64,000 nucleotides of DNA from Candidatus Nomurabacteria bacterium. GTDB lineage: Bacteria; Patescibacteriota; Minisyncoccia; Phycocordibacterales; CALRBL01. The notes under the pieces were generated by a model that had not been told where the DNA came from, ran no database searches, and saw only the letters and a list, made by a program, of their open reading frames with translations. Shown here one piece after another: positions 27,629-62,211 of this stretch. The position numbers and the translations under genes are program-made. Within the stretch, counting starts at the first letter, position 1. Each line of letters opens with the position of its first letter. The DNA is taken from NCBI GenBank assembly GCA_963834935.1, contig CAWIDS010000001.1, positions 65,338 through 129,337 of the forward strand, written 5' to 3'.

Positions 27629-29317
27629 CTACTCGATCTGTTCTGTTTCAAGCACCACATCTTTCGCACCGAAAATCTTCTTGGGAATGAGGCCGAAAAT
27701 CTCCACGAGCTCGGGGCTCTTGAGCAATGAGAGAAGGCCCACGCCAGCAAGGATGCCGATGATGCCAGCAATGAAGCCTTGGAAGAAGATTCCGACTGAA
27801 GTATTCAGATCAAGGTAGCGTGACAAGGCATTGAGAGAAAGAAAAGTAATGAAGCCCATGATGACCGCTGTCGAGAAACTCTGGTAGAACGTCTTGCGGA
27901 GGGTGAGGAACTTCATCTTGAAATCCATCTCGAAGCAGATCCAAAGCACCACCATGTTGATAAGCGTGCCAATCGAGTAGCCGAGAGGAATGGTGAGGAC
28001 AATCGAACCGGGAATGTCATTTACCTTGAACAGGTTCTCGATGAAATACTGGAAGACCGGATTGCTTTTCCAAAGAAGTATGAAAAACCACGGCAAGGTG
28101 ATAGTGAGGAAGGATGAGGTGATGTTGATATAAAGTGGCTTGCGTGTATTGCTGCCGGCATAGTAGGCGCGGATGAAGAGAAGCTCGAGACCTTGGGCGA
28201 CCAGCGATATGACGAACAATGCGAGGCTTGCTGCCGTAAGACGGGTGTCATTCCAACCGAAATGCCCTGAGCCGAGAATGGTACGCACGATCTGGGCGCG
28301 GAGCACGATGAAAAGCGATGTTACCGGCAGCGACCAGAAGATAATATGCCGCGCTGCCACTTCAAGATGTTCGCCGAACTTGGCCCTCTGCCCGCTTGAG
28401 AAGAGCTTGCTCAAGGTCGGAAATGCTGCCAGCGAATAACTCACGCCGATGATGGCGAAAGGCACTGATTGGAGATTGAGGGAAAGATTGAAGATGGAAA
28501 TGGATCCCGCCGTCATGAACGAGGCATATGAGGTGATAAAAATAAGCTCAAGGCTATTGAGCGAAAGCGTAAGCGTGCGCGGAAATGAGAGCCGTGCGAC
28601 TTTCTTGAGCTTCTCCATGTGCATTTTCCAGGTGAAGACCGGCAGCATGTCCAAGCTCTTGATGTACGGGATCTGGATGGCAAAATGCAGTATGCTTCCA
28701 AGTACCACGCCGGCCACTATTCCGTCCAATCCGAAATGAGGCGCAAGAGCCACGATACCGAAGATGATCGCACCGTTATAGAAAAGGGGGCTCAAGGCGA
28801 AGAGGAAGAATCTCTTGGTTACCTGTGTGATCGAACCAAGAAGGTTCGATATGCCGAGCGCCACCGGCTGTATGAGCAAAATCCTTGAAATGAGTATGAA
28901 TTGCGGCCGCAGGCTCTCGTTCGCAAGCGTCGGCAAGATGATATGCGAGAGATACGGCATCAGCGCATATGCGAGCGCAGATACCAGAACCATCATGATC
29001 ATGTACGAGCTAAAGACGGTATTGATAAAAGTCTTTGATTCTTCGTTCTCTTCCCCTTTCTTCAGCCTGTCGGCGAGGAAAGGAATGAGAACGGCAATGG
29101 AGACGAGTGATGCGACGGACGAAAAGATGAAATCCGGCACGCGGAATGCGGAATAATAAATATCAAGGATGCTGCTGGCGCCGAAGGTATGAGCCAGGAG
29201 CCGGTCGCGGATGAGGGCGAGAAGCTGCGAAAGGAAAGCGAATATAGCCAGGAGATAGGCGGCATTATGCACGCTGCTTATTTCCTTCTCGATCATTGAA
29301 AAAAGTTTTCTTACCAT
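27629..29317 (-). CDS. murJ: Lipid II flippase MurJ/MviN family
   Basis: 562 aa, polytopic. The MurJ N-terminus 'AAYLLAIFAFLSQLLALIRDRLLAHTFGAS' is present. Confidence 0.8.
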   Translation of the reverse strand: MVRKLFSMIEKEISSVHNAAYLLAIFAFLSQLLALIRDRLLAHTFGASSILDIYYSAFRVPDFIFSSVASLVSIAVLIPFLADRLKKGEENEESKTFINTVFSSYMIMMVLVSALAYALMPYLSHIILPTLANESLRPQFILISRILLIQPVALGISNLLGSITQVTKRFFLFALSPLFYNGAIIFGIVALAPHFGLDGIVAGVVLGSILHFAIQIPYIKSLDMLPVFTWKMHMEKLKKVARLSFPRTLTLSLNSLELIFITSYASFMTAGSISIFNLSLNLQSVPFAIIGVSYSLAAFPTLSKLFSSGQRAKFGEHLEVAARHIIFWSLPVTSLFIVLRAQIVRTILGSGHFGWNDTRLTAASLALFVISLVAQGLELLFIRAYYAGSNTRKPLYINITSSFLTITLPWFFILLWKSNPVFQYFIENLFKVNDIPGSIVLTIPLGYSIGTLINMVVLWICFEMDFKMKFLTLRKTFYQSFSTAVIMGFITFLSLNALSRYLDLNTSVGIFFQGFIAGIIGILAGVGLLSLLKSPELVEIFGLIPKKIFGAKDVVLETEQIE

Positions 29318-33314: not shown

Positions 33315-33977
33315 CTACTCGGCGTCGCAGAAGCAGAGGAGGCAGCAGCGGTCAATCCAGACGCCCCCAAAGAGGCCGAGGCGGAACTTGAAGCCACCGT
33401 CCGAGCAGCGGAACACGAGCGTCACCCTGCGGTTGCCGTCGGCGTCTTTCCAGAGCGCTTCCTTTTCATCGAAGGAGACTGAATATCGGTCAACAGGCAG
33501 TTGCTCTTTGCCCTGCTCATAAGCGAGGCTCATGCCTTGGGCACCGACGAGCACTCCTTTGTGCGAACGGATCTGGTTCAGGCAGTCGTCTGACGACACC
33601 CGACCTTTGATCTGGAAGACCTTCACCTTGAACTTGCGTCCGGCGACGAGCTTGGTCGTCGCATTGGCGTAGTTCTGGTCGGTGATGTTTTTGTTGTAAT
33701 AGGCGAACTCCTTACGGTGCTCGTTACCGAACGTATCCAGACGGGTTCCGTGATCATAACCTTCCGGCACGATGACGTTGAAGGTGTTGACCAGTTCGAA
33801 ACGGTCGTCCACCAGGGCTCCCTCGGTGAGGGCAGCATGCATCGCTTTCGCGTGCCTGTTGCCTCTCGAGTTGACGATCTGATGCACAAGATCGGCGTTG
33901 AAGCCTGCCTTGTCGAGGACCAATGCAAATTCATGCATCGCTCTACAGCTCATATCACACACGCTTTTTGCGCTCAT
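33315..33977 (-). CDS. Hypothetical protein in a locally GC-rich (~60%) segment
   Basis: 220-aa ORF with no recognisable motif and a Cys-rich C-terminus. Its composition differs from the flanking dnaE and thrS. Confidence 0.4.
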   Translation of the reverse strand: MSAKSVCDMSCRAMHEFALVLDKAGFNADLVHQIVNSRGNRHAKAMHAALTEGALVDDRFELVNTFNVIVPEGYDHGTRLDTFGNEHRKEFAYYNKNITDQNYANATTKLVAGRKFKVKVFQIKGRVSSDDCLNQIRSHKGVLVGAQGMSLAYEQGKEQLPVDRYSVSFDEKEALWKDADGNRRVTLVFRCSDGGFKFRLGLFGGVWIDRCCLLCFCDAE

Positions 33978-35878: not shown

Positions 35879-35920
35879 GCAAAAACAAATACCATCTTGA
35901 TGATGGTATTTGTTTTTGCT
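35879..35920. terminator. Bidirectional terminator hairpin between the convergent thrS and the adhesin gene
   Basis: Sequence aaaaacaaataccatc-ttga-tgatggtatttgttttt. Confidence 0.55.
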
Positions 35921-35931
35921 TCTGCTATCTT

Positions 35932-37605
35932 TTATTCTCCTATGCTTTCAAGTATCTCCTTTTCCTTTCGCTTCTCGTTTCGTCGCGCTACGTAAAGGTA
36001 GGCAAGGAAGGCGCTCCAGATGAAGAGTCCGCCGACGAAGAGTTCTGTCTTCACCGTAGGGCTGATGCCGGTAGCAGGGATCGAATTCAAGTACACACCA
36101 CCATTCGTTGGAGGAGTAGGTTGGGTGTATAAGTAAGCATTGTTGTTCTGGCCAACGTTCACATTACATGAAGCAGTCACTTGCTGGCCGTTCTCATAGA
36201 CAGTAACAGTGGCGTACTTGTAGCCTGAGGTCTGGTAGGACTTGTAGGCAGTAGAATTCGAGCTGTAAAGTCCGTCGGTTCCGTTCCATGAGTAGGTGTA
36301 GTAGCCATTGTAACCGTAGCTGTTGTTGTAGTTGTAACTATTGTTGTTATAGATTCCTCCTGAAGGATAAACGGTCCAAGTGACATTGTTATTTATTCCA
36401 GGATTGCTTGGTGTTCCTTCGCAATAAGCGGAGATGTTATTGTTGATATAATTATTTCCCTGGATGTTTGTCGTACAGGTCTGGGTGATGCTCTGGCCAT
36501 TTGAATAGATAGTCACTGTTCCGTATTTGGTACCAGGATTATTGTATGTCTGATAGACAGTCTGAGACGAGCCAGAAAGTCCGTCGGTTCCGTTCCATGA
36601 GTAAGAATAGTTTCCGTTTCCGCCTGAAGCATTGACGCTCCAAATCACCTGATTATTGACATTTGCGTACTCAGGCGATACCTGGCACGAGGCAGTAAGG
36701 TTATTTTGATAATTGTTGTTTACATATGCGTTACAGCTTGCTGACTGCGACTGCCCGTTCGAATTGACAGTAACTGTTGCGGTCTGATTTCCAGCGCTGT
36801 TGTAGGTTTGATAAACAGTTTGCGATGATCCTGAAAGGCTGTTCGAGCCGCTCCAGTAGTATGAATAGTTTCCGTTTCCACCTGAGACGTTCGCAGTCCA
36901 TCCAATTTGACCACCGACATTGATAGAGTTCGGATTAGCGGAACATGAGACAACAAGATTATTCTGTGTCTGGTTGACTTGGGCGTTGCATGTGGCTGAT
37001 TGTGTCTGACCGTTCGAATTGACTGTCACTGTTGCGGTCTTGCTCCCTGAGTTAGCATAGGTTTGGGAAACGCTCTGAGACGAGCCAGAAAGTCCGTCGG
37101 TTCCGTTCCATGAGTAAGAATAGTTTCCGTTTCCGCCTGAGACGTTCGCAGTCCAGGTTATCGGATTGTTCACGTTCACCGAAGAAGGATTAGCCGAACA
37201 TGAGACGACAAGATTATTCTGCTGTGGCTGATTAACGTTCACGCTACATGTCTGCTGAATGGATTGATTGTTCGAGGTGATAGTGACGGTGGCATATTTG
37301 GTGCCGGAAGTCGAATATGACTGAGATACCTGCCTGGTCAAGCCGCTGAGACCATCGGTTCCGTTCCATGAGTAAGTATAATAACCGTTTCCACCTGAAG
37401 CTGATCCGGTAAAGGTGACCGTATCGCCAATATGAGCGGTGCTTTCAGAAACGCTGCATGATCCTGTGACAGGCGGATAAGTACAGCCAGTGCTGCACGC
37501 ATATGCCTTGGCGTCGGATATCGCCAAAAGCGAAAATACAGCTAGGATAAAGGCAATGGTGAGGAAGATGTATTTTGTTTTTTTCATGTGATTATTATAT
37601 ATCAT
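35932..37605 (-). CDS. Secreted PKD-like tandem-repeat surface protein with a C-terminal sortase sorting signal (IPATG, TM segment, basic tail)
   Basis: 557 aa. N-terminal signal peptide. About 5 repeats of ~83 aa containing 'GGNGNYSYSWNGTDGLSGSSQ.V.QTY...G.K.ATVTV.SNGQ' (a PKD-like WxFGDG / HxY..G.Y core). The C-terminus is 'LNSIPATGISPTVKTELFVGGLFIWSAFLAYLYVARRNEKRKEK'. Confidence 0.75.
   Translation of the reverse strand: MIYNNHMKKTKYIFLTIAFILAVFSLLAISDAKAYACSTGCTYPPVTGSCSVSESTAHIGDTVTFTGSASGGNGYYTYSWNGTDGLSGLTRQVSQSYSTSGTKYATVTITSNNQSIQQTCSVNVNQPQQNNLVVSCSANPSSVNVNNPITWTANVSGGNGNYSYSWNGTDGLSGSSQSVSQTYANSGSKTATVTVNSNGQTQSATCNAQVNQTQNNLVVSCSANPNSINVGGQIGWTANVSGGNGNYSYYWSGSNSLSGSSQTVYQTYNSAGNQTATVTVNSNGQSQSASCNAYVNNNYQNNLTASCQVSPEYANVNNQVIWSVNASGGNGNYSYSWNGTDGLSGSSQTVYQTYNNPGTKYGTVTIYSNGQSITQTCTTNIQGNNYINNNISAYCEGTPSNPGINNNVTWTVYPSGGIYNNNSYNYNNSYGYNGYYTYSWNGTDGLYSSNSTAYKSYQTSGYKYATVTVYENGQQVTASCNVNVGQNNNAYLYTQPTPPTNGGVYLNSIPATGISPTVKTELFVGGLFIWSAFLAYLYVARRNEKRKEKEILESIGE
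36170..37470. repeat. Tandem direct repeats with a period of about 250 nt, encoding the PKD-like units
   Basis: Repeated nucleotide blocks are visible (for example ...gtccgtcggttccgttccatgagtaagaatagtttccgtttccgcctga...). Confidence 0.7.
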
Positions 37606-37608
37606 ATA

Positions 37609-38334
37609 TCATATACTGTCAATAGATACGAGATATGCTTCCGCAACGTACCTGTCGGTCTTCTGGCCGAAGCTATTGCACGTCGACAAAGTCAGCATAT
37701 TCTTTTTGTCCGAAAAATCAACCAATTCTTGAGTAGCATTGACCAGACTGACATCGCCTACCTTGTATACGTACTTTTTTTTCAAGCCGAAAAGGTCAAT
37801 TTCATCGCCGGCTTTAAGATTCTTTATGTTATTGAATACCTGGTATGCCTTGTTATTCACGATGCGATAGCCAGTGCTGTGACCGAAGATAAAGACGTTT
37901 CCTTCCCCTGCAAGGCCGGAGCCGGGATAATAGACAGGCCCATGAGTCAAGGAGTTATCGAGGACAGTGTAATCATCCGATGAAGGATGCACCACGTCAG
38001 CATCCAAGTTTATGGATGGCGCGACTATGCGGAGCGGCGTCTCGCCTTTCGGCGACGAGATGATCTGCGATGAATTCACTTCTGCGCTCGACGTGCCGGT
38101 CAATCCAAGATTCTGAAAAGTGGACTGCTCGATCTGGGTCGCGATGGTATTATCCTGCGTCTGAACTTCGAATTCATTGGGTATGAAGCCGAGAAAGTTG
38201 AGAATGATGCATGTCACGAGAAATACCCCAAGAAATATCCCGGCAAAAAAAAGAGTATTCTTTATGAAATGCTCGTGGGCGGCGTAAAAGGAGTTTTTCT
38301 TCATGGGAATTAGGGTCATTATAGCAGATGACAA
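37609..38334 (-). CDS. Sortase family transpeptidase
   Basis: 241 aa with an N-terminal TM anchor. The catalytic His is in 'IFGHSTGY', the Cys in 'LTLSTCNSFG', and an Arg follows downstream. It sits immediately upstream of the IPATG substrate, with a 3-nt gap. Confidence 0.8.
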   Translation of the reverse strand: MSSAIMTLIPMKKNSFYAAHEHFIKNTLFFAGIFLGVFLVTCIILNFLGFIPNEFEVQTQDNTIATQIEQSTFQNLGLTGTSSAEVNSSQIISSPKGETPLRIVAPSINLDADVVHPSSDDYTVLDNSLTHGPVYYPGSGLAGEGNVFIFGHSTGYRIVNNKAYQVFNNIKNLKAGDEIDLFGLKKKYVYKVGDVSLVNATQELVDFSDKKNMLTLSTCNSFGQKTDRYVAEAYLVSIDSI

Positions 38335-38375
38335 TTTATTGACAAGTATTATATTGTAAAGTATAATCCTGAATT

Positions 38376-39734
38376 ATGAATAAAGAGACCACACCTGTCC
38401 AAGTAGCAGTCAGGATCATCATACTTATCATCATCTTGACCCTTATCCTTATCATCTGCTTTGGAATGATCAAGCTCATTCCCCAAGTTTTCTCGTCATT
38501 CTCAAATCTCAACAATATTTTCTCATCCAAACAGAAGGAACAAATCACCCTTTCGCTCTATCCAACGTCGATCAATTCGAACGAGCATACGACGCTGGCT
38601 TTCAAGCAAGAAGGCGGCCAGGCTGTCGGCTCATATTCCCTTCAATATTCATGTGACGACAATACTACCCTCCTCGAAGCTGTGTATGGCCAGAATATCA
38701 GCGTCATCAATTGCAACATGCCTTACAACCTCGAAGCAGCTACATCGAGCACAGCGAGCCAGTCGCTTGACCTGATCGGCATCAATAACGCCTCTTCGAC
38801 AGAAAAAAACATTCAGATAACCATCAGTCACGTCGCCATAACCGCTAGTTCAACTTCAGTCTTCTCTTCTTCAACTGTCTCGCTATTGATAAAGAATGAT
38901 GTGGGAAGTCCTGCAAATACGCCTGCTTCAAGTACGACAGCGACCATAGCCACGCCTGCGACGGCCCCTTCCTCAAGCCAGGCTCCAGCCGCCGCGAGCC
39001 ATGTCACTTACAACAACAGCCGAAGCTATTCTTCCTCGTACAACTCGTCTCCGGCGAATCTCGTAGTCACTTTCACCAAGGGGGTCGTCGATCAGAACAA
39101 CCGGACAATGACCGTATTCCAAGTCAGGAACACCGGAGGACATGCGAGCGGACCATGGTCATTCGTTGCTAGTCTGCCTACTTCAAATTCCTCTTATTCG
39201 ACTTACGATTCCGGATACCAATCCTCTATCCCTCCGCAAGGCGTAAGCATCTTCACTCTCGCTTTCGACAATACCCTTCCCGGCACCAACAATATGACTA
39301 TAACCATCGACGGAAAGACAACTACTCTCGCCGTGATCGGCAATGGAGGAAGCTATAACGGCGGAACGTACGGAAACGGCTCCCAGGCTGACCTTTACAT
39401 CGTCTCGGCCCAGACAGGAAGTGTTGACTACAACGGCAACTTCTGCGCAAGTTACTCATGCTACGGAACAGGAACTGGCCGCCCTGCAGTGAAAATTATC
39501 GTCGGCAATGAAGGAGGAGTCGCTACCGGCCCTTGGAGCTTCCGCACCGCCTTCGGCGGATATGCAGACGGATACGACTCAGGAATCCTTCCCTCGCTTG
39601 GAGCCGGACAACAAGCTACTTATGTCGTAGGATTCGATACACTCACTAACAACAGCCTTCAGATCGTCCTTGATCCGAACAATATGGTCAATGAATCAAA
39701 CAGGTCTAACGACTATCAGACAGTCAGCTTCTAA
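38376..39734 (+). CDS. Membrane-anchored Ser/Thr-rich secreted protein with two internal ~110-aa repeats
   Basis: 452 aa. It has an N-terminal TM, an S/T/A-rich linker and repeated 'GG.A.GPWSF..' units. No sorting motif. Confidence 0.5.
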   Translation: MNKETTPVQVAVRIIILIIILTLILIICFGMIKLIPQVFSSFSNLNNIFSSKQKEQITLSLYPTSINSNEHTTLAFKQEGGQAVGSYSLQYSCDDNTTLLEAVYGQNISVINCNMPYNLEAATSSTASQSLDLIGINNASSTEKNIQITISHVAITASSTSVFSSSTVSLLIKNDVGSPANTPASSTTATIATPATAPSSSQAPAAASHVTYNNSRSYSSSYNSSPANLVVTFTKGVVDQNNRTMTVFQVRNTGGHASGPWSFVASLPTSNSSYSTYDSGYQSSIPPQGVSIFTLAFDNTLPGTNNMTITIDGKTTTLAVIGNGGSYNGGTYGNGSQADLYIVSAQTGSVDYNGNFCASYSCYGTGTGRPAVKIIVGNEGGVATGPWSFRTAFGGYADGYDSGILPSLGAGQQATYVVGFDTLTNNSLQIVLDPNNMVNESNRSNDYQTVSF

Positions 39735-39750
39735 GAAAAGAAATAAAATT

Positions 39751-41827
<2,077 letters not shown>

Positions 41828-42149
41828 AGATAAATATTGTAGCAGAGAAAGAAGCCAAAGTACCTATTGACATACTCTTTATATATGACACAATCCCAAT
41901 AGCTGCGTGCGGGGTTAGGTGCAACCCAGAGCCTAGACTGCTCTTCCTTTGAATCTTTGGCCGAGCCTTACGAACTCCGGCCAATATTCGAAGAATTGCC
42001 GTTCTTTAAAAGCGGACGAAGGAATCCTTGGCAATCCCAAAAGGAAACTTCTATCCGAAGCGGGAAACTCATTGGGATGATAACCGCAGCACCATCGCTG
42101 GGGGAGAAAGGCCTGGATCTCGGATTCCCTTTCTCCCCCTCCCTCTCTT

Positions 42150-51072: not shown

Positions 51073-53331
51073 CTATTGAGAAGTTGTTGACGTCCCGTTG
51101 ATCTGGGCGATATAGGCATCTCCCTGCTTCTCGAAGCCCGGCTCTATGGAAATGATGTCCTTTATCTCACTTATCGCTCCTTGCTTGTCGCCATTCTGAA
51201 GCTTCTGGTTTGCGATATTGAGCTTCATCTGAAGGAGGCTGTTCAGCCTGTCTGTCTGCTTGGTGTCGTAATATGCCCTCAACATGCGTATATCTACTCC
51301 ATCGTCAGTATTCTTCAAGGGAGCAAGTATTTGGTCTGCGGTCTGATTATCTCCGGCATAGATCAAGCCGACAGCATAAACGATCCTAGCATCAGTATCG
51401 TCAGTATCGAGCTCGAATGCCTGCTTGAGAGATGGGACTGCTTCCGCGTATTGGCCATTATTGAGATATGCAGAGCCTATCTCTATAAGAATCGTCTGCT
51501 TCTCTGGGCTGAGCTCATGAGCCTTCTCAAGGTCATCTATCGCCTCCTGAAAAGGAACCGATGACGCGACCTCATGAAGCTTGCTGAGATACGAACCATA
51601 GAAAAGAAAATATCGCGGATCGAGGGGAGTTTCCTTGAGCTGCATGTCCATCTCGCTATTGGTATAGGTGACGAAGGCAGATTTAATATCGCTTGAGACA
51701 TTGAGCTCTAATATCTGTGATGTTCCCTGGAGAAGCTGTTCCCTTGCCTCGGCCGTGCCAGCTGAGCCGTAACCAATCGCGGTCTTGTAAGCGGCAAGCG
51801 CTGCAGTGAAAGCTTCAGGCGTGCCGTTCTGCAAAGCATAATTCTGATAGCTTAAAGCATCGATGAGGGTGCTTGCAGCGAGATACGGGATGGCAACGGT
51901 GTAATAAAAAGTGACCGAGAAGACCGCGATAATCGCTGCCGAACCGAGCCAGAGATATGAGCTGTCCTTGATCGGCGTTGCAAGCCATTTCATATCGAAT
52001 GTTTTCTTCTCGTGGAAGTGGACGAAAGCAAGCACAGCGAAGAACAGGATGTAGCTTGTGATGTTGTCGAAGACGAAGATGTTGTGGATGAAATAAGCGA
52101 TCAAAAGCGAAGTCAGGATGACTTTGTCCGAGAAAAGGAAATACCGATGTTCCGAATCAAGCTTCGATTTCCAGATCGAGTAGATGCATGCGGCGAAAAG
52201 AGAAAGGTATGCGAGCAGTCCGAAGACTCCGCCAGCAATCAGCCAATCGAGGAATACGTTGTGCGCCCGATCGAACCACTGTTCCTGGTCATAAATCTTC
52301 GGATCATAATATTTGGCGAAAACATAATTGAAATTATCCTGGCCCCAGCCGAGAATCGGCCTTTCTTCCACTCCTTTCAAGGCGATGCCCCAGATGCCGA
52401 AACGTCCCTTTCCTTCGGTGCTCGCGAACTGCTCGAGCCCCGACTTGTCGAAAGTGGCGAGTGCGGCGAAGCGGGAAAGCAGATCATGCTGCTTGACGAA
52501 GTTGCTCTGCTTGAACGTAGCAAGAAGCCCCGCCACCAGGACAATCGTGACAATGGCTGCCACGCTTCCATAACGGAGAACCTTGTTCTTCTTCTCGAAG
52601 AATGCGAAAGCGACCGAGGCGAAAAGCACGCCGATAATCAAGCCGATAAGGGCTCCTCGGGTTCCCGTATGATAAAAAATATACAAGTCAAAAAGTGTCA
52701 CGGCAGAATAGATTCCTATGCCGGTCCATTTTATCTCCGGATTCGTCTTGTATTTCATCGAGTGGCGAACCAATAGGAAAACGGCAAGGAAGATATGGAA
52801 GAGCATGTATATGCCAAGATAGGTGGAATTTCCTGTGCGTGCATCAATGCGCTCGATTCCCTGACCGAGCTGGTCAAGTCCGTAGAATCCCATCACCACA
52901 CTCACCGCCAGCGAGGTCTGAAAAAGCCTCTGCCAAATCTTCTCGGTCATGACATTCGAGCTTAGCACAAGGAAATAGATGAAAAGATGGACGTGAGTGA
53001 CGAATCCTTCCATCCGCTCGAAATTTGACCAGAAGCTCTTGTACGGATATATTCCGAAAATGTCGGCCACTCCAATAACGACGAGGAATGTCACCAATGA
53101 AATAGTGATGGCGGTTATTTTCGGGCGGTATTTAGGATCACGTATGGCAAGGATGAGATACAGCTCTCCCGCCAGCTCGACAAGCAGCCTGAAGAGGAGA
53201 TTCTTGCCAGTTATGTAAGGAAAAAAGAGAGAAGAAGAGACAACAAGACAGACGAATGGAATTATGAATAAAAGCGAAACGACCGAATAATGCAAGATCT
53301 TGTTAGTATTCATGTCCTGAAATATTAGCAT
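51073..53331 (-). CDS. O-antigen ligase/polymerase-like (Wzy_C) membrane protein with C-terminal TPR repeats
   Basis: 752 aa. About 12 TM helices include the 'RAHNVFLDWLIAGGVFGL' O-antigen-ligase motif. The C-terminal ~250 aa is TPR-like. Confidence 0.65.
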   Translation of the reverse strand: MLIFQDMNTNKILHYSVVSLLFIIPFVCLVVSSSLFFPYITGKNLLFRLLVELAGELYLILAIRDPKYRPKITAITISLVTFLVVIGVADIFGIYPYKSFWSNFERMEGFVTHVHLFIYFLVLSSNVMTEKIWQRLFQTSLAVSVVMGFYGLDQLGQGIERIDARTGNSTYLGIYMLFHIFLAVFLLVRHSMKYKTNPEIKWTGIGIYSAVTLFDLYIFYHTGTRGALIGLIIGVLFASVAFAFFEKKNKVLRYGSVAAIVTIVLVAGLLATFKQSNFVKQHDLLSRFAALATFDKSGLEQFASTEGKGRFGIWGIALKGVEERPILGWGQDNFNYVFAKYYDPKIYDQEQWFDRAHNVFLDWLIAGGVFGLLAYLSLFAACIYSIWKSKLDSEHRYFLFSDKVILTSLLIAYFIHNIFVFDNITSYILFFAVLAFVHFHEKKTFDMKWLATPIKDSSYLWLGSAAIIAVFSVTFYYTVAIPYLAASTLIDALSYQNYALQNGTPEAFTAALAAYKTAIGYGSAGTAEAREQLLQGTSQILELNVSSDIKSAFVTYTNSEMDMQLKETPLDPRYFLFYGSYLSKLHEVASSVPFQEAIDDLEKAHELSPEKQTILIEIGSAYLNNGQYAEAVPSLKQAFELDTDDTDARIVYAVGLIYAGDNQTADQILAPLKNTDDGVDIRMLRAYYDTKQTDRLNSLLQMKLNIANQKLQNGDKQGAISEIKDIISIEPGFEKQGDAYIAQINGTSTTSQ

Positions 53332-53363
53332 ATTTGCCGAAAAAAGTGCTAATATAGCGTCCT

Positions 53364-54194
53364 ATGCAAGCGAATAGTCCTACAACGGTCATACGGCCCA
53401 AAAAGATATTCAGCCTGAAGGATCTCAGCGAATTGTGGCAATACCGTGAACTGCTCTATTTCTTTTCGTGGCGCGACCTCAAGGTCAGATACAAGCAGAC
53501 TTCGATCGGCGTGGCTTGGGCAATTTTCCAGCCTTTCATCACCATGATCGTCTTCACAGTTTTTTTCGGCAATCTGGCTAAGATTCCTTCCGACGGCGTA
53601 CCATATGCCATCTTCGTCTACGTCGGGCTACTTTTCTGGCAATTCTTCTCAAGCGCCCTTTCCGATACGAGCGACGTGCTCATCTCGAATCAGGCGATCG
53701 TCACCAAAGTATATTTTCCGAGGCTTCTCTTGCCTATCTCAAGCGTCATCACCAAGCTTGTCGACTTCGCCATCGCTTCGGTCATCCTTGTTGGCTTGAT
53801 GGTGTATTACGGATATGCGCCGCACCTCTCCGGACTTCTGATTCTTCCGCTGCTTCTCGTCATCTCATTCATGGCATCAGTCGGCGGCGGATTAATACTT
53901 GCATCTGTGAATGTAAAATACCGAGACGTCCGCTACGCACTTCCCTTTTTCATACAGATCCTGCTTTTCGTCACGCCGGTCATCTATTCTTCAAGCATTG
54001 TCGGAAAATATTCCTGGATACTGGCCATTAACCCGATGTCGGGAGTGATACAAAGCGCCCGCGCTGCCCTTCTCGGCACCGCACCGATAAACTGGAACCT
54101 GATCGGCATATCATTCCTGGCGACGACCCTGCTCATGATCGGTGGCATCTATTTCTTCAAAAAGACTGAACAGTATTTCGCTGACATCATATAA
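53364..54194 (+). CDS. wzm: ABC-2 type polysaccharide exporter permease (Wzm/TagG/KpsM-like)
   Basis: 276 aa with the ABC-2 topology 6-TM permease signature. Confidence 0.8.
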   Translation: MQANSPTTVIRPKKIFSLKDLSELWQYRELLYFFSWRDLKVRYKQTSIGVAWAIFQPFITMIVFTVFFGNLAKIPSDGVPYAIFVYVGLLFWQFFSSALSDTSDVLISNQAIVTKVYFPRLLLPISSVITKLVDFAIASVILVGLMVYYGYAPHLSGLLILPLLLVISFMASVGGGLILASVNVKYRDVRYALPFFIQILLFVTPVIYSSSIVGKYSWILAINPMSGVIQSARAALLGTAPINWNLIGISFLATTLLMIGGIYFFKKTEQYFADII

Positions 54195-54203
54195 ATACGA
54201 GCA

Positions 54204-55460
54204 ATGGAAAAAGCAATCATCGAAGTAAAGAATATCGGAAAGAAATATAATATCTCGCATCAGCGTGGCGGCTATGTCGCCTTGCGCGATGTCATCGCTG
54301 GCGTTTTCAAGACGCCGTTCAAATTCCTCAAGCAGAAGGTCAAACAAGTGACAGGCTTCAAGACTAAAGAAGAATTCTGGGCGCTCAAAGGCGTCAACTT
54401 CGAGATCAAGAAGGGTGAAGTAGTCGGCATCATCGGCAGGAACGGCGCGGGCAAGTCGACCCTTCTGAAGATACTTTCCCAGATCACCCCTCCCACTGAA
54501 GGGGAAATAAAGATTTACGGCCGCGTCGGCTCGCTGCTCGAAGTAGGCACCGGCTTTCACCCTGAACTTACCGGCCGCGAGAATATCTTTCTCAACGGCG
54601 CCATCCTCGGCATGACGAAGAAAGAAATCGTTCGAAAATTCGACGAGATCGTCGCCTTCGCCGGTATTGATCGCTTCCTTGATACTCCCGTCAAACATTA
54701 CTCAAGCGGAATGTACGTGCGTCTCGCTTTCTCCGTCGCTGCCCACATGGAGCCGGATATTCTTATTATCGACGAAGTGCTTGCCGTCGGAGACGCCGAA
54801 TTCCAGAAGAAATGCCTCGGCAAGATGGAAGAGATCACCAAGGGCGAAGGACGTACCATCCTTTTCGTCAGCCACAACATGGGAGCGGTCCAGCAGCTTT
54901 GCAAGAAATCGATCCTGCTCAAGGAAGGCAAAGTAGATTATATCGGCCCGACCGAGACTGCCATCTCGAAATACATGGATGCCTCACTGAACAAGGACTC
55001 GGGAAAAATGGATTTGAGAAAATTCAACGGCAGCCTTTCAAGCAAGGCATCTTTCACCGACATTTATATAAATGACGGCGATGGATTCGCCAATATAAAA
55101 CCTTCTTCAGCAATCACCATCAAGGCGAAAGGTGAGATAATTGAAGAAATCGAGCTGTTCAACGTCTCTTTCTCAGTTTATGCGAAAGGAATAAGGCTTT
55201 TCACTACGGAAGATGTCGAGACTCCTTCAACAATCAAGAAAGGCTTGTTCGAATCGGAAATTGTCATTCCTGCATACATGCTCCGACCCGGAAATTATTC
55301 CATCGGCCTTGGCGGTTGGAACGAACGGGGCGATTGGCTCTACGCCGAAGATGTCGGGCATTTCAATATCCTTGAGGAATGGGACATGGCGAATAAAGAG
55401 GCCCATTTCGGCATCATCAATATTCCCGTAAAAGGAAAACGTACTATCCATGAAAAATGA
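54204..55460 (+). CDS. wzt: Polysaccharide ABC exporter ATPase (Wzt/TagH-like) with a ~170-aa C-terminal extension that may be a carbohydrate-binding module
   Basis: 418 aa. Walker A 'GRNGAGKST', signature 'YSSGMYVRLAF' and Walker B 'ILIIDEVLAVGD' are followed by an extra C-terminal domain. Confidence 0.8.
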   Translation: MEKAIIEVKNIGKKYNISHQRGGYVALRDVIAGVFKTPFKFLKQKVKQVTGFKTKEEFWALKGVNFEIKKGEVVGIIGRNGAGKSTLLKILSQITPPTEGEIKIYGRVGSLLEVGTGFHPELTGRENIFLNGAILGMTKKEIVRKFDEIVAFAGIDRFLDTPVKHYSSGMYVRLAFSVAAHMEPDILIIDEVLAVGDAEFQKKCLGKMEEITKGEGRTILFVSHNMGAVQQLCKKSILLKEGKVDYIGPTETAISKYMDASLNKDSGKMDLRKFNGSLSSKASFTDIYINDGDGFANIKPSSAITIKAKGEIIEEIELFNVSFSVYAKGIRLFTTEDVETPSTIKKGLFESEIVIPAYMLRPGNYSIGLGGWNERGDWLYAEDVGHFNILEEWDMANKEAHFGIINIPVKGKRTIHEK

Positions 55461-56916
55461 GAATTCAAAAAAAGTGGCATTGGTGACGCTTGTCACCGGC
55501 GAAGAATACAGCAAACTCTATTACGAGCACTTCTTCCCTTCGCACCAGCGATTCGCCAAGAAGCACGGACTTGACCTGATCGTGCTCAAAGACCGCATCG
55601 ACAAGAGCGAATACGGCATGGCTCGTCACCCTTCATGGCAGAAGCTGCTCATCTTCCAAGCGCCGGAGACTGCAGGCTACGAAAGGCTGTGCTGGATTGA
55701 TGCCGACATCTATATCACCTATCATGCCAAGAACCCTTTCTTTGAGGTGAAAAAAGGCTATTGGGGCGCTGTCAGGAACAATCCCTTCGGTTTCGACTAT
55801 CTCAACAAGACTGATCTCGAGCTGTACGCTTTCTGTCCGACAGAAAACAGGCCTTTATATATATTGAATGGCGGATTCTTCGTCGTTGAAAAATCGGAGC
55901 ATCAAGCCCTCTTTGAAAAGGTCTACAAAGATTACCCTGAACAGCCATGCTACGAGCAAGGTCCGCTTTCATACCACCTGATCAACGAGAAGAAAGGCGT
56001 CGAGCTTCCGCCTTCTTGGAATTGCATCCAGCCGAATTATTTTAATTTTCATCAATCCCAGAACAAGATCGTCCGGATATTCAATTTCGTCATGGAAAAT
56101 GATTTCATACATTTCTGCGGAGGAATCAATTGGAAGATATTCCGAACGGCCAGTTTTCTCGACAATACGCTGGCTGACTTCGATACCATCTCTAAAACCA
56201 GATTCATGAGAAAGGTAGGAAAGGTGTATTCGAGAATCCTGGAAAAATTAAGCAAGTTGGAGCGAAAGAACGAAGATGAAGAGAAACTCGAAACGTATCA
56301 CGCTGAAAATGCGCGGCTTGAGAATGAATTCGATTCCCTTCCGCCGCCCAAAAAGCTCCATTTCGGCTGCGGGCCGCGCGTGCTCAAAGGCTGGATCAAC
56401 ATTGATCTTTTCTTTGAGCCATACGAACAATACATGAAAAGCTATACGGCTGAATTTTACGGAGAGGAGATGCGTGGAAGCCGGAATGAGTTCTATGCGA
56501 TCGATATCATCAAGACCGGTCTGAATCTTCCGGATAATTCCGTCGATGTAATCTTCCACGAGGATTTCATCGAGCATCTGAGCGAAAAGGAGCAGGTCAT
56601 ATTCCTCGCGGAAACTTTGCGCGTTCTCAAACCCGGCGGGATCCACCGCATCAACACGCCTGAGCTTCTCATGGCTATGAAAAAATCCCGCTTTGCAGAA
56701 GGTAAAGCCGGCGTCTACGAAGCGGAATGGAATAATCACGGCCATTTCAACATCCTAACCAAACGGAACATGGAAGAACTTGCGCGCATGGTCGGATATT
56801 CGAGTATAGTATTCAATTCAAGAAATAATAGTACGTCGAAAATGATCCCTAAAGAATACAGACCAGCACCAGACAGACCAGAGGATGGAAATATTTTTGC
56901 TGATCTCATTAAATAA
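55450..56916 (+). CDS. Bifunctional GT-A-like glycosyltransferase (N-terminal) and class I SAM-dependent methyltransferase (C-terminal)
   Basis: 488 aa. The N-terminus has 'ALVTLVTGEEY...CWIDADIYI' (DxD). The C-terminus has 'LHFGCGPRVLKGWINIDL', 'EDFIEHL' and 'LRVLKPGG' methyltransferase motifs. Confidence 0.6.
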   Translation: MKNENSKKVALVTLVTGEEYSKLYYEHFFPSHQRFAKKHGLDLIVLKDRIDKSEYGMARHPSWQKLLIFQAPETAGYERLCWIDADIYITYHAKNPFFEVKKGYWGAVRNNPFGFDYLNKTDLELYAFCPTENRPLYILNGGFFVVEKSEHQALFEKVYKDYPEQPCYEQGPLSYHLINEKKGVELPPSWNCIQPNYFNFHQSQNKIVRIFNFVMENDFIHFCGGINWKIFRTASFLDNTLADFDTISKTRFMRKVGKVYSRILEKLSKLERKNEDEEKLETYHAENARLENEFDSLPPPKKLHFGCGPRVLKGWINIDLFFEPYEQYMKSYTAEFYGEEMRGSRNEFYAIDIIKTGLNLPDNSVDVIFHEDFIEHLSEKEQVIFLAETLRVLKPGGIHRINTPELLMAMKKSRFAEGKAGVYEAEWNNHGHFNILTKRNMEELARMVGYSSIVFNSRNNSTSKMIPKEYRPAPDRPEDGNIFADLIK

Positions 56917-57735
56917 ATGAATAGGATAAAGAAGATATTGCCGGCCGGAATAAAGAATTTTCTCAAAGGAGTCATTTCCTTTTTCCGCGCCTCAGTGGAC
57001 CTGATAAAAAGAAGGAAGAGGCGATTCTTGCGTACATTTTCAAAAAACAGCGAGGCCGGATACTCATTTGCCATCCTTGCCGTCAAAAAGACCGCCTACA
57101 TCGACATGGCGATAGACAACATCAATTCCCTTCACTATATCAATCCGAATCATCACGTAACCCTTTACTGCGATACTGCCTGCTTGGAATATGTCTCAGG
57201 GAAAAAAGATAAGCTTGATTACCCACAAAAGGTCGCGATCATAGACTCATACGGAAAAGAAGACAGGCCGTGGCAAGAAAGCAAGATCGATACCTTGATC
57301 GATGCCAGCCGCAAAGGAATGATACTGACTGATGCCGACGGCATATGGCATGAGGATCCAATTGTCGACCCGGAAAAAATAACCATGCTCGTCATCGTCA
57401 ACAAGATAAAGGAAAAGGTGGACGAGCTGCAGCTCGTCGAGACTCTCTTCAAGAAAGAATGGGGCGATTTCACCCATTATGTGACAGGATTCGTCTCTAT
57501 CCCATCACGACTAATGACGGAAGAAGTCGCCGCTGACATGAGATCATTCAACGCGCTCATTTTCACCGAAGGAAAGGGCTTGAAAAGGCTTTCGGAAGAG
57601 CTCTCCATAAATCTCGCTCTGCAATCTCACTATCCCGCAGAGCTTTTCTCGACGCTGAAGGACGAAGATGGTCCGGGAAGCACCTCATCTCTTCAATCGC
57701 TTTATTACGGCTGCCTCAATGAGATAACCGAATAA
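56917..57735 (+). CDS. Hypothetical protein, possible nucleotide-sugar transferase-like
   Basis: 272 aa with a 'LTDADGIW' DxD-like motif. Otherwise unrecognised. Confidence 0.35.
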   Translation: MNRIKKILPAGIKNFLKGVISFFRASVDLIKRRKRRFLRTFSKNSEAGYSFAILAVKKTAYIDMAIDNINSLHYINPNHHVTLYCDTACLEYVSGKKDKLDYPQKVAIIDSYGKEDRPWQESKIDTLIDASRKGMILTDADGIWHEDPIVDPEKITMLVIVNKIKEKVDELQLVETLFKKEWGDFTHYVTGFVSIPSRLMTEEVAADMRSFNALIFTEGKGLKRLSEELSINLALQSHYPAELFSTLKDEDGPGSTSSLQSLYYGCLNEITE

Positions 57736-57736
57736 T

Positions 57737-58621
57737 ATGGATAAGCTTCAAAAAAAGATACATAACCGCATGATCCGCATCAGGAAATTCCTTGTCGCTC
57801 ATTCGGGCAATCCGAGGCCTTCCAGCTATCCGTATGTCAGCGGCGATACTTTCCGGGCCATCGCGGATCATATTCATGATGACCTGAAGACAGTTGATAC
57901 TTCAAAAGTAAAAGAAGCTGATATTATTTTCGTCAAAATATCATATATAAAAGAATTCTTTGAAAAGATCCATCCTCACATAAAATTTCCATATAAGCTC
58001 ATCACTCACAATGGCGATATCCTGATCGACGAAAAGTTGTCGACATACGCGGACGAAAAAATCATCAAGTGGTATGGGCAGAATGTCACGATAAATCATC
58101 CTAGGATCGTTCCGCTGCCGATCGGCCTCGAGAATATCTCCTACTGCAACAGTGGCCTGCCTAAATATTTCAATCGGCTCAGGATAAAGAGCCTGCCTAA
58201 AAAAAATCGAATACTCTTCGGCTTCAATATCATGACCAACAAGGAAAAGCGTCAGCAAGCGGAAAATGTCCTACTCTTCCTTCCCGTCGCCGACAAGATA
58301 CAAGGCTGGCCCGGAGCGAAAAAATATCTCGAACTTGCGGCATCGTACGCTTTTGTCGCTTCTCCCGAAGGCAACGGTATCGACTGCCACCGCACGTGGG
58401 AAGCCCTTTATCTTGGTGCTGTCCCCATCGTCACCTCTTCGCCGGTAACTGAGCACTTCAAAAGCATTGGATTCCCTCTTTTTGTGATCAAGGATTGGAA
58501 AGAGCTGTGTGGACTTACTGAAAATGATCTGAAAAAAAAATATCACGAGCTTCAGGATTCATTTGACAAAAGCCTCCTTCGAGCCGATTATTGGTTTAAT
58601 CTCATATGCCCGAAAAAATGA
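57737..58621 (+). CDS. Exostosin-like (GT47-like) glycosyltransferase
   Basis: 294 aa. The C-terminal motif 'FVASPEGNGIDCHRTWEALYLGAVPIV' is typical of the exostosin family. Confidence 0.45.
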   Translation: MDKLQKKIHNRMIRIRKFLVAHSGNPRPSSYPYVSGDTFRAIADHIHDDLKTVDTSKVKEADIIFVKISYIKEFFEKIHPHIKFPYKLITHNGDILIDEKLSTYADEKIIKWYGQNVTINHPRIVPLPIGLENISYCNSGLPKYFNRLRIKSLPKKNRILFGFNIMTNKEKRQQAENVLLFLPVADKIQGWPGAKKYLELAASYAFVASPEGNGIDCHRTWEALYLGAVPIVTSSPVTEHFKSIGFPLFVIKDWKELCGLTENDLKKKYHELQDSFDKSLLRADYWFNLICPKK

Positions 58622-59805
58622 AGCCTCGTCTCTCCATAATAATGCCCTGCTATAATTGCGCCTCGACGCTTGAGGAATCGCTCGATTCCGCATATGCGCA
58701 GGCCCTCACCATTCCTTTCGAGATAATAATGGTGGATGACGGATCGACTGACAAGACAGCAGGATTGATAAAAAAGCTCGCTTCGAAGCATCCGGAAATA
58801 AAGACACTCGCGCATGAAATAAATCGCGGCGGGGGAGCGGCGCGAAATACCGGCATCAAGAACTCTTCCGGAGAGCTGATTTTCTGCCTCGATAGTGATA
58901 ATGTGCTCGGTCCGGGATCGCTCAATGCCCTGATCTCCTATCTCTCAGAAAAGAAGGCGGACGCTGTTGCTTTCGGCGAGCGTCGCTTCTTCATCGGCAA
59001 TAACCTCAGCAAATTCCGCGCCGAGAAATATCCCGTCACAAGCGAACCTTTCCCTTTTATCGGCCTCTTCAAGGAAAAGGCCGTTCTCCTTGATAATTTT
59101 CTTTTTACCAAGGAATCATTCCTCCGCACTGAGGGTTATCCCGAACATCACGGCTTCGATACCCAATGCTTCGAGATCCGTTATCTTTTATCGGGAGCCA
59201 AGCTGTATATTGTTCCTGATGCAATCTTCTACCATCGACAGGTTGGAGGCAAGAAATCATATTTTGAGAGAGTGTATGAATCAGGAGAATTTTCCAAGAA
59301 CTTCTATCTCATATATGAGGATTTATTTTGTCTTTTTTCTCCTGAAACGAGGAAAGCAATAATCAATTTCAACATCTTCAGGCAGAATACCTTGGACGAC
59401 CAAAGCCTTCCAAAGATGATAGAAAAGCTTTACATGAAAGATCCCGGCAGCTTTCTCGTCAAAAATTACGAAAAATTCACGGCGCCGTCTGCCTTTGAAG
59501 ATACGATCGATGGACTCTTCTGCAAGGCGATATTTCTCTACAAAGACAAAAAATTTAAGGAAGCTCTCGATTGCTACGCTACATTGGCTGAAAAAGGGCT
59601 CGATACGCCAATCCTTCACTTCAACATGTTGAGAAATACCTTGGCCCTCGCCTATCCCAATGACCTCGTCTCCATTGAAAAAAGGGTTTCAGCCGTTCTC
59701 GATTCCATGAGCGTCAAAAGAAGGAGAATCGACATGAGGAATGGTATTATAAGGAGAATAATTAATAAGATAAAAAATGAATACGACAAGACTGCAGAAA
59801 ATTAA
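58606..59805 (+). CDS. GT2 family glycosyltransferase with a C-terminal TPR-like region
   Basis: 399 aa. GT-A motifs 'SIIMPCYNCASTLEESL', 'MVDDGSTDKT' and 'DSDN' are present. Confidence 0.75.
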   Translation: MPEKMKPRLSIIMPCYNCASTLEESLDSAYAQALTIPFEIIMVDDGSTDKTAGLIKKLASKHPEIKTLAHEINRGGGAARNTGIKNSSGELIFCLDSDNVLGPGSLNALISYLSEKKADAVAFGERRFFIGNNLSKFRAEKYPVTSEPFPFIGLFKEKAVLLDNFLFTKESFLRTEGYPEHHGFDTQCFEIRYLLSGAKLYIVPDAIFYHRQVGGKKSYFERVYESGEFSKNFYLIYEDLFCLFSPETRKAIINFNIFRQNTLDDQSLPKMIEKLYMKDPGSFLVKNYEKFTAPSAFEDTIDGLFCKAIFLYKDKKFKEALDCYATLAEKGLDTPILHFNMLRNTLALAYPNDLVSIEKRVSAVLDSMSVKRRRIDMRNGIIRRIINKIKNEYDKTAEN

Positions 59806-60560
59806 AAGGAAAGTTGGAAAGATACCGTTTGCCGCGCCGCTGTATCACTCGCTCAAAGGAAGCTATTATTACGCCGATTTCATCAGGGATTTTTTCGCAT
59901 TCAAGAAGATGTCCGGCGCTAATCCCCGCTTCCCCCGTATCGTGGACCAGGCAGTACCCATGCCTTACTGACAAGACGTCCATCACCGGCTTCGAGCCGC
60001 ACTACCTCTACCATCCTGCATGGGCTGCCCGCATCATCGCTGAGGTCAAGCCGAAGCTTCATATCGACTTCTCTTCGATCCTTCATTTCAGCACCCTTGT
60101 CTCGGCATTCGTGCCGGTCCATTTTTATGATTACCGCCCGGCTGACATAAAGCTGAAAAATCTCGAATGCAAGAAAGGAGACTTGCTTGCTATGCCTTTC
60201 GCTGACAGTTCCGTCGAATCGCTTTCGTGCATGCATACCATCGAGCATGTCGGCCTCGGCCGCTACGGCGATCCGCTTGATCCCGAAGGCGACCTCAAGG
60301 CAATCAAAGAACTCATCCGAGTGCTTGCACCAGGAGGCACGCTCATCTTCGTCACCCCGATCGGTAAAGCAAAACTCGAATACAATGCGCACCGCATCTA
60401 TTCATATGCACAGATAAAAAGCTATTTCAAAGAACTTACTCTAAAAGAATTCTCTCTCATTCCCGACAATTTCCTTGAAACAGGAATAGTAAAAAATGCG
60501 ACAGAAGAATTAGCTGACAAGCAAGAGTGGGGCTGCGGCTGTTTCTGGTTCACGAAGTAA
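59777..60560 (+). CDS. DUF268-like SAM-dependent methyltransferase, apparently frameshifted near 59960
   Basis: The 64-aa ORF (59777..59971) ends '...FPRIVDQAVPMPY*'. The coding then continues in another frame, '..TDKTSITGFEPHYLYHPAWAAR...LAPGGTLIFVTPIG' (59814..60560). Confidence 0.5.
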
Positions 60561-61344
60561 AGCCGAGCAGCTTCTTGTCTTCTTCGTCAATCGGCGTCTC
60601 ATATAGATCCTTGTACTGGTGAAGGATTGAGATGTCGTGCAATTCATTCTTTCTTTTATCGAAATCCACGTACCATGTCTCACAGAGGCCCTTGAACGGG
60701 CCGATAGTTCCACCATGATAGAGCACGAGCAGGCTGATCCAAATATCGCTGACGAATTTATCCCAGTGCACATGGGGCCTTATTTTTTCGATATCGCCTT
60801 CGACATCAGTGAAATGCTCGAGAATAAATGACTTCTTGACGATACAGCCGCCGAAGCCTCCCCAATAATAATTCCTTGTCCAAAAAGGAATGCTCTTATT
60901 CCTCTTTTTCAGGAATTTCGTTTCATTGCGCCCGAGCTGCATGGCGGGATTGTTTCCGTTTATGGTGAATGGCAGCTGCTGCCGAACCACATCCATCACG
61001 AGAACATCGTCTTCAAGAAGAAGGATATAGTCCTCCTTTATATATTTCGCCGCATCGACGAGACGATGAAGCCATGAGATGAGACGGTCAGGATTCTCGA
61101 ATACGTTCGATACGCCATTCCCTGTATTGAAGCTCTCATTCTTATAGCGGACATTGAAATGCTCGGCAAGCTTCGAAAAATCATCGCCTCCGTCGCCGAC
61201 GACGTACATGTCGGAATCCGGATAATATTTCCTGAAGGAAGATATAACCGAAATGACCGCCTTCGGCCGCTTGTAGCACTGATAGAAGGCCCCTATAGAC
61301 GGATATTCACTCATGATAAGATGATAGCATGCAAAGCGATCCAT
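60550..61344 (-). CDS. Hypothetical protein, possible GT-A-like transferase
   Basis: 264 aa with the acidic motif 'YILLLEDDVLV'. Confidence 0.35.
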   Translation of the reverse strand: MDRFACYHLIMSEYPSIGAFYQCYKRPKAVISVISSFRKYYPDSDMYVVGDGGDDFSKLAEHFNVRYKNESFNTGNGVSNVFENPDRLISWLHRLVDAAKYIKEDYILLLEDDVLVMDVVRQQLPFTINGNNPAMQLGRNETKFLKKRNKSIPFWTRNYYWGGFGGCIVKKSFILEHFTDVEGDIEKIRPHVHWDKFVSDIWISLLVLYHGGTIGPFKGLCETWYVDFDKRKNELHDISILHQYKDLYETPIDEEDKKLLGFTS

Positions 61345-62210: not shown

Positions 62211-62211
62211 C

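Follow-up and report, generated by a model that had tools for sequence, protein, structure and literature searches.

Gene Organization of the Locus

The DNA studied here is a 64,000-nt stretch of contig CAWIDS010000001.1 from a Candidatus Nomurabacteria bacterium (hereafter, the window). At positions 35932-39734, it encodes three proteins that seem to form a dedicated sortase system: a sortase, a secreted target protein with PKD-type repeats, and a divergently transcribed membrane protein with CARDB domains. The three open reading frames (ORFs) are located where an earlier reading of the letters alone (the sequence-only reading) had placed them. In their longest forms, the PKD ORF occupies 35932..37605 on the minus strand (557 aa), the sortase ORF 37609..38334 on the same strand (241 aa), and the CARDB-protein ORF 38376..39734 on the plus strand (452 aa). 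The window contains a single sortase and a single candidate substrate of its kind.

Exact matches to all three products are present in a public protein collection: the PKD-repeat protein as a 551-aa form starting at ATG 37587, the full 452-aa protein, and the sortase, with exact sequence, as versions of 231 aa (start 38304) or 236 aa (start 38319). At 90% identity, each of the three is a singleton, and the matches sit on a contig of 432,723 bp. The size of this source contig, together with the Patescibacteria/Paceibacteria origin of those homologues that carry a source name, fits the reduced genome assumed in the sequence-only reading.

Sortase

The sortase gene most likely starts at 38304, which gives a product of 231 aa (37609..38304, minus strand; the ORF reaches 38334). 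Residue numbers refer to this form. The product matches Pfam PF04203 with an E value of 1.9e-19 and a score of 70 bits (cut-off 26.6), and a profile search of PDB sequences agrees with this assignment. The fold is the β-barrel of sortases. The only transmembrane (TM) segment of the protein is at the N-terminus (38182-38256, minus strand) and is followed by a G-x-x-P-x-E stretch that is conserved in the homologue alignment. The catalytic residues, encoded on the minus strand, are His142 in IFGHS (37879-37881), Cys209 in LTLSTC (37678-37680), and Arg218 in DRY (37651-37653). All three are present in the window translation and are invariant in 36 aligned sequences, namely, the window sortase and 35 homologues. 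The sequence-only reading had pointed to the His of IFGHS and the Cys of TLSTC as catalytic; the Pfam match and the invariance of these residues bear this out.

None of the NCBIfam cut-offs for sortase classes was reached by the window sortase. The best score was obtained with SrtD (42.3 against a cut-off of 140), followed by class D (38.8 against 165), class E (37.1 against 160), class C (34.6 against 160), class GN (23.6 against 158), and SrtB (13.5 against 154). The generic model TIGR01076 alone comes close (35.6 against 39.35). In addition, the DP[WFY] lid motif was not found in the sortase, the 231 aa of which contain no Asp-Pro dipeptide at all. The enzyme thus has neither of the two features of class C, the lid motif and a C-terminal TM segment. 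Taken together, the Pfam match, the invariant triad, the lack of any class match, and the missing DP[WFY] motif characterize the window enzyme as a genuine sortase, lidless and apparently housekeeping-like (A/D/E-like), which lies outside every curated class.

PKD-Repeat Target Protein

The target gene (35932..37587, minus strand; the ORF reaches 37605 via an upstream ATG) encodes a secreted protein of 551 aa. The predicted signal peptide MKKTKYIFLTIAFILAVFSLLAISDAKA (37504..37587, minus strand) has its hydrophobicity peak at residues 9-19 and ends in A-K-A. This AxA-type end, which is the probable cleavage site, precedes a conserved Cys, and the A-x-A-C pattern is conserved in the homologue alignment.

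The signal peptide is followed by five tandem PKD-type repeats (36145..37458, minus strand) of approximately 85 aa, each bounded by a Cys pair. Repeats 1 to 5 correspond to 37201-37458, 36946-37200, 36688-36945, 36424-36687, and 36145-36423, respectively, and repeat 5 has an Asn/Tyr-rich insert. Pfam PKD_4 (E value of 1.3e-16; 60.8 bits, cut-off 27) and Pfam PKD (E value of 1.8e-11; 44.3 bits, cut-off 23.5) both match the protein. The AlphaFold2 model shows five β-sandwich domains, with a predicted local distance difference test value of approximately 90, and a helix at residues 510-550. The five PKD-like repeats of the sequence-only reading are therefore retained, and profile hidden Markov models (HMMs) for both the sortase and the PKD domain match above their cut-offs. 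Repeats 2 and 3 are 70% identical at the protein level. Tandem Repeats Finder detected no DNA-level repeats in the gene, so that the repeats should be old or diverged at silent sites. The mature protein has very few charged residues and is rich in Asn, Ser, Thr, Gly, and Tyr. The search for homologues returned 687 proteins; those with a source name are from Patescibacteria.

An alternative reading of the locus, with its immunoglobulin (Ig)-like domains, is a pilus or fiber, in which the sortase would polymerize the PKD-repeat protein head-to-tail through isopeptide bonds to Lys, in a class C-like manner, with the CARDB protein possibly as the basal or tip unit. Class C pilus sortases use IPxTG or VPxTG pilins, for example, pneumococcal RrgB and RrgC. 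The present locus resembles such systems in Ile or Val at the first position of the motif, which is typical of streptococcal pilin subunits, in the adjacency of sortase and substrate, as in pilus islands, and in the Ig-like domains of the substrate. When the PKD model was compared as a whole chain with Foldseek, generic strings of Ig-like domains were the only matches, with bead-on-string fibers such as the Aureispira grappling-hook protein ranked first. Candidate Lys residues are also present: the mature part has a Lys in the G-x-K-x-(A/G)-T-V strand of repeats 1, 2, 4, and 5 and one more in repeat 5; repeat 3 has Gln at this strand position. However, the sortase lacks both the lid motif and the C-terminal TM segment, and a YPKN-type pilin motif was not found in the PKD-repeat protein, the sequence of which contains no YPK. 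In place of major and minor pilins with a housekeeping sortase, the window has one sortase and one substrate, and the CARDB family has no invariant extracellular Lys. On balance, a polymerized fiber is quite improbable.

Extended Sorting Signal

The C-terminus of the PKD-repeat protein (all elements on the minus strand) begins with the extended motif V-Y-L-N-S-I-P-A-T-G (36067..36096), the putative cleavage site of which is between Thr and Gly. It is followed by an eight-residue spacer (ISPTVKTE), the hydrophobic segment LFVGGLFIWSAFLAYLYVA (35986..36042; 19 residues, with conserved F, W/F-S-A, and A-Y), and the basic cytoplasmic tail RRNEKRKEKEILESIGE (35935..35985; 17 aa). The tail contains the basic stretch RRNEKRK and is kept in the closest homologues. 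In total, 44 residues follow the Gly of IPATG. The C-terminal sorting signal proposed in the sequence-only reading is thus found as a tripartite signal and not as a continuous TM segment.

The same arrangement of motif, TM segment, and tail is present in 105 of the 120 best homologues (of 687). In these 105 proteins, Leu at position -3 and the Pro, Thr, and Gly of the motif are 100% conserved, and Pro, Thr, and Gly are spaced 4-8 residues ahead of the TM segment. The first position of the pentapeptide is Val in 53%, Ile in 44%, and Leu in 3%. The variable residue of the motif is Tyr, Ala, or Ser in the homologues, and Asp and Glu also occur in the genome loci described below. The family consensus can be written as (V/I)(Y/F)L(S/N)x(V/I)PxTG, followed by a TM segment of the form F…WSA…AY. 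Judging from this alignment, the sorting signal of the PKD family is longer and more constrained than the classical LPXTG signal. The sequence-only reading had regarded IPATG as non-canonical in comparison with LPXTG; Ile or Val at the first position is, however, the rule of this family and not an oddity, and what is distinctive is the upstream flank and the conserved TM segment.

A search of 1.84 billion representatives with the 56-aa C-terminal signal alone, which is a short and insensitive query, gave only 52 proteins, mostly PKD-repeat proteins. Therefore, the signal is apparently tied to the PKD family.

In 32 of the 105 homologues, the motif is followed by a long tail of 80-330 residues. 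The long-tailed homologues end in a conserved cytoplasmic domain of approximately 70 aa (…S.DA…I.K……W..(I/L)..E..(I/V)) that has no Pfam match. Examples are P0013, P0017, P0022, P0035, P0054, and P0087 among the homologues, and loci L013, L014, L022, L027, L065, L068, L073, L074, and L077. This domain would remain in the membrane once the sortase cleaves.

Conservation of the Sortase-Target Pair

A scan with the sortase profile, using one genome per species, found 288 relatives, and 80 loci were fetched, of which the ones with a phylum label belong to Patescibacteria. The locus counts given below are based on a set of 83 related loci with a total length of 1.3 Mb. The order gyrB, divergent CARDB gene, sortase, target, and thrS recurs in L001, L002, and L003, which are on long contigs. 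The sortase-substrate synteny is thus conserved in related genomes, as the sequence-only reading would predict.

Downstream sequence of 3 kb or more is available for 66 sortase loci, 50 of which encode a protein with [IVL]PxTG and a TM segment. All targets (52/52) are on the sortase strand, and for 36 of the 52, the start is no more than 250 nt from the stop codon of the sortase. The same PKD-type repeats, one to seven in each protein, are found in 45 of the 52 targets. Three PKD homologues (L084, L085, and L086) that have a plain TM anchor without the motif serve as a control. They occupy the same slot between gyrB and thrS, although the fetched stretch of L085 has no called gyrB, and a sortase and a CARDB gene are absent from the neighborhood of all three.

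The variable residue of the motif (Ala, Tyr, or Asp/Glu) tracks the sortase clades. This match is consistent with coevolution of the signal and the enzyme, and likewise with shared descent. Several sortase columns covary with this residue, for example, the position after the catalytic Cys, which is Ser or Thr. Since these columns are confounded by phylogeny, they are not used as proof.

CARDB Partner Protein

The 452-aa protein is a type-II membrane protein with a Ser plus Thr content of 24.7%. All of its segments are encoded on the plus strand: an N-terminal TM segment (38415-38471), a two-Cys N-terminal domain (approximately 38544-38903), a linker rich in Ser, Thr, Ala, and Pro (38904-39047), and two CARDB domains (39048-39341 and 39384-39731) that are assigned on HMM evidence. 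The Pfam CARDB match of the window protein is marginal (23.0 bits against a cut-off of 22.7; E value of 9.1e-5). Among the orthologues, 26 of 30 match this family, with a best E value of 3.7e-16, and the family profile matches the CARDB domains 3idu and 2kl6 in the PDB with an E value of 2.4e-6. A word-indexed homology search with the 452-aa protein gave no matches, probably because of its composition or a limit of the word index. The sequence-only reading had described a Ser/Thr-rich membrane-anchored protein. The anchor and the composition are as described, and the protein is better regarded as an N-terminally anchored CARDB protein with a Ser/Thr-rich linker.

The family architecture consists of an N-terminal TM helix, the two-Cys domain, a low-complexity linker of Ser, Thr, Pro, and Asn, and one or two CARDB domains. 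The second CARDB domain is replaced by one terminal PKD-type repeat, of the kind present in the sortase target, in about a dozen loci (L019, L035, L036, L044, L050, L053, L058, L064, L065, L070, L072, and L078). This ties the partner to the structure of the substrate. A phmmer search of the locus ORFs places an orthologue immediately upstream of the sortase, in divergent orientation, in approximately 50 of the 83 loci.

The CARDB gene is the most constant neighbor of the sortase, including loci without a target. This constancy, together with the shared structure suggested by the terminal PKD-type repeats, might mean that the sortase ligates the PKD-repeat protein to the CARDB protein, or else hydrolyzes it off so that it is shed, instead of linking it to peptidoglycan. 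Several features make this very improbable. No invariant extracellular Lys was found in the CARDB protein family, which argues against this protein as the sortase acceptor, and a free N-terminus is not expected because of the TM anchor. Furthermore, the window encodes the lipid II flippase MurJ (27629-29317, minus strand; E value of 2.1e-60), the gene of which adjoins those of RNase HII and dnaE. The peptidoglycan pathway is therefore present, and lipid II is available.

Promoters, Start Codons, and Terminator

A perfect σ70 promoter (TTGACA-17-TATAAT) precedes the PKD gene at 37594..37622 (minus strand), in the 3' end of the sortase gene, and its -10 box ends 6 nt before ATG 37587. A second perfect promoter at 38339..38367 (plus strand) precedes the CARDB gene, with its -10 box ending 8 nt before ATG 38376. 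No other perfect TTGACA-N17-TATAAT site occurs in the 64 kb, for which 0.02 such sites would be expected by chance. The sortase gene has a near-consensus promoter (TTGTCA-16-TATAAT; 11/12) at 38318..38345 (minus strand) with TG upstream of the -10 box (extended). With promoter strength taken from the Escherichia coli consensus, the sortase promoter would be slightly weaker than the PKD and CARDB promoters.

Since ATG 37605 falls inside the perfect promoter, the PKD-repeat protein probably starts at 37587, 21 nt past the sortase stop. The 3-nt gap and the 557-aa length given in the sequence-only reading hold for the most upstream ATG, that is, for the longest ORF; the probable values are 21 nt and 551 aa.

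The promoter arrangement recurs in the relatives. The 83 loci contain 208 sites that agree with the consensus at 11 or more of its 12 positions, and 133 of these are located in three short intervals around the sortase: the target gene is preceded by such a site in 46 loci, the CARDB gene in 53, and the sortase gene in 34. Distances of 6-9 nt between the -10 box and the ATG are the most frequent. Near-perfect σ70 promoters 6-9 nt ahead of start codons account for 74 of 155 cases in the window and the 83 loci. Many mRNAs of this lineage may therefore be leaderless or near-leaderless, and the short spacing indicates that the PKD and CARDB mRNAs would be leaderless or nearly so. Given the perfect consensus promoters and these mRNAs, the PKD and CARDB proteins probably rank with the most abundant proteins of the envelope and would form a coat or an adhesin layer. 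The major surface structure proposed in the sequence-only reading gains independent support from the only two perfect promoters of the window and from the layout recurring in relatives.

Between the convergent thrS and PKD genes, there is an 18-bp perfect hairpin (35879..35919) with A-rich and T-rich flanks. It is A/T-rich, with a folding free energy of -28.5 kcal/mol and a z-score of -9.2; none of 200 shuffled sequences was as stable. It was missed by a G+C-biased terminator scan and is likely to be a bidirectional terminator.

Proposed Mechanism

The most probable interpretation (roughly 0.7) is a dedicated sortase system of the Patescibacteria (Paceibacteria type), in which cleavage between Thr and Gly of IPATG fixes the PKD-repeat protein to the wall. 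In this mechanism, the 551-aa protein would be exported by Sec, and its C-terminal hydrophobic segment and basic tail would retain it in the membrane for a short time. The adjacent membrane sortase would then read VYLNSIPATG, and Cys209 would cut between Thr and Gly. Lipid II, the precursor of peptidoglycan, is the most probable amine acceptor, and transfer to the acceptor would leave the five Ig-like PKD domains covalently fixed on the cell surface. The CARDB protein, which is anchored in the opposite orientation by its N-terminal TM segment, may be a conserved partner in the same surface structure. The gene identities, the fold, the catalytic residues, the architecture of the signal, the co-occurrence of motif and sortase, and the promoter architecture are shown by the present data. 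From these, we infer the cleavage, the acceptor, the abundance, and the adhesive role; adhesion to a host or partner is suggested by the domain types.

Several observations weigh against the model. Cleavage and wall linkage would, for the whole PKD family, rest on sequence. The sortase reaches no class cut-off, and the LPXTG-anchor HMMs (Pfam Gram_pos_anchor and the NCBIfam LPXTG models) gave no match at E values up to 1. The estimate of abundance depends on the E. coli promoter consensus, and the match between motif class and sortase clade is inseparable from shared ancestry. A sortase without an adjacent target is found in 16 of the 66 loci with ample downstream sequence, at least four of which keep the CARDB gene. 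The pairing is thus not obligatory, or the target is encoded elsewhere. Finally, the conserved TM residues and the long tails of 32 of the 105 homologues are both atypical for classical sorting signals and hint at an extra or different role of the C-terminal segment.

Part of these observations would be accounted for if the protein were an uncleaved anchor, that is, if YLSxVPxTG, the TM segment, and the tail formed an interaction module and the sortase acted on proteins encoded elsewhere. The conserved TM residues and tail would be explained, long cytoplasmic domains would be odd as discarded cargo, and neither the silence of the LPXTG HMMs nor the genomes with a sortase and no adjacent target would be surprising. 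However, the Pro, Thr, and Gly residues are invariant, and at the spacing of a sortase motif, 4-8 residues ahead of the TM segment. Moreover, the target is always on the sortase strand and mostly adjacent, and no sortase accompanies the three homologues without the motif. These features make an uncleaved anchor unlikely, and the cleaved, wall-linked protein is preferred.

A wider form of this preferred interpretation is that the PKD and CARDB proteins together are the long-observed surface layer or host-contact coat of the ultra-small bacteria of the Paceibacteria type, built by a sortase subfamily that is specific to the Candidate Phyla Radiation (CPR) and recognizes the extended signal, and that the membrane stub, with its conserved TM segment and cytoplasmic domain, has a second function in the long-tailed relatives. 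We regard this as speculative and rather doubtful. If true, the stub left after cleavage might serve, for example, in signaling or recruitment.

Comparison with Known Systems

The cassette is a lineage-specific variant of a known system. Housekeeping sortases (A and E, from Firmicutes and Actinobacteria) likewise have an N-terminal TM anchor, a lidless eight-stranded barrel, the His-Cys-Arg triad, and TLxTC, and their substrates likewise carry a pentapeptide, a hydrophobic segment, and a basic tail. The differences from the housekeeping LPXTG/LAXTG systems are as follows: the evidence suggests one dedicated adjacent substrate instead of many scattered ones; the motif starts with Val or Ile, has the upstream flank V/I-Y/F-L-S/N, and is followed by a conserved TM segment and often a long tail; no class HMM cut-off is reached; and the host belongs to a Patescibacteria lineage.

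Class GN ("marine") sortases of Gram-negative Proteobacteria occur with an adjacent vWFA target (TIGR03784/TIGR03788). The present locus shares with them a single sortase gene beside a single target that has a lineage-specific variant signal. However, the window sortase is weak on the marine_sortase model (23.6 against 158 bits), and the motif and the target domains differ. As an analogy only, the locus also resembles the archaeosortase ArtA of Haloferax, which processes the S-layer glycoprotein with the PGF-CTERM signal and yields a lipid-anchored product. In both cases, a dedicated enzyme would act on an abundant surface protein with a C-terminal motif and TM segment, but the enzyme families are unrelated, and the anchor is a lipid in the one case and a wall linkage in the other. 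Archaeal surface proteins commonly contain PKD and CARDB domains.

Within the CPR, the Pam pilus resembles the present locus as an Ig-like-domain surface structure in a CPR bacterium; it is assembled by chaperone-mediated donor-strand exchange, with no sortase (bioRxiv 10.64898/2026.03.03.709456). The PKD-repeat protein is below the cut-off of the NCBIfam model CPR_pilus_PamR (22.5 against 300 bits). More than half of the CPR genomes encode a sortase (PMC6744442). In the searchable literature, sortases are described as frequent in the CPR, with no description of a substrate, a signal, or such a cassette. A PKD/Ig-like protein, the orthology of which to the present PKD family is unchecked, is one of the five secreted proteins with the highest expression in a cultured member of the Paceibacteria (PMC10936435). 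In the expression tables of the supplement to that study, the sortase is in a different gene context; therefore, the tables give no direct evidence for the cassette.

A large share of bacterial diversity belongs to the Patescibacteria, which live mostly attached to other cells and whose envelope proteins are almost uncharacterized. A CPR sortase is now linked to a specific substrate family and an extended recognition signal. To the known systems, the cassette adds an extended signal that is now defined, a conserved partner protein, and a recurring layout of promoters; the substrate family, signal, partner, and promoter features are present in 50 or more of the 83 related genomes. The peptide VYLNSIPATGISP can be used in enzyme assays, and the cassette can serve as a marker at a fixed chromosomal position. 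The locus also provides two candidate major surface antigens for labeling, enrichment, or assignment in cryo-electron tomography. If the sorted protein mediates host contact, it would be a direct target for the study of episymbiosis.

Neighboring Genes

The gyrB gene (39751-41833, minus strand), next to the CARDB gene, appears to be disrupted. It has at least seven frame changes relative to the intact orthologue in L001, in addition to in-frame stops, and each of its pieces is 72-96% identical to that orthologue. Either the assembly contains single-base errors in this region, or an essential gene has very recently begun to decay. The nearby dnaE, thrS, and sortase cassette are intact. In the interval between dnaE and thrS, an ORF of 220 aa (33315-33977, minus strand) has no Pfam match, and its slot is occupied by different genes in the relatives L002 and L003.

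A cluster of surface-glycan genes is located at 51073-63066. The encoded proteins are a membrane protein of 752 aa (Wzy_C, O-antigen-ligase-like) with TPR repeats, an ABC-2 permease with its ATPase, GT2 and GT11 glycosyltransferases, and methyltransferases. The products of this cluster could glycosylate the wall or the surface proteins rich in Asn, Ser, and Thr.

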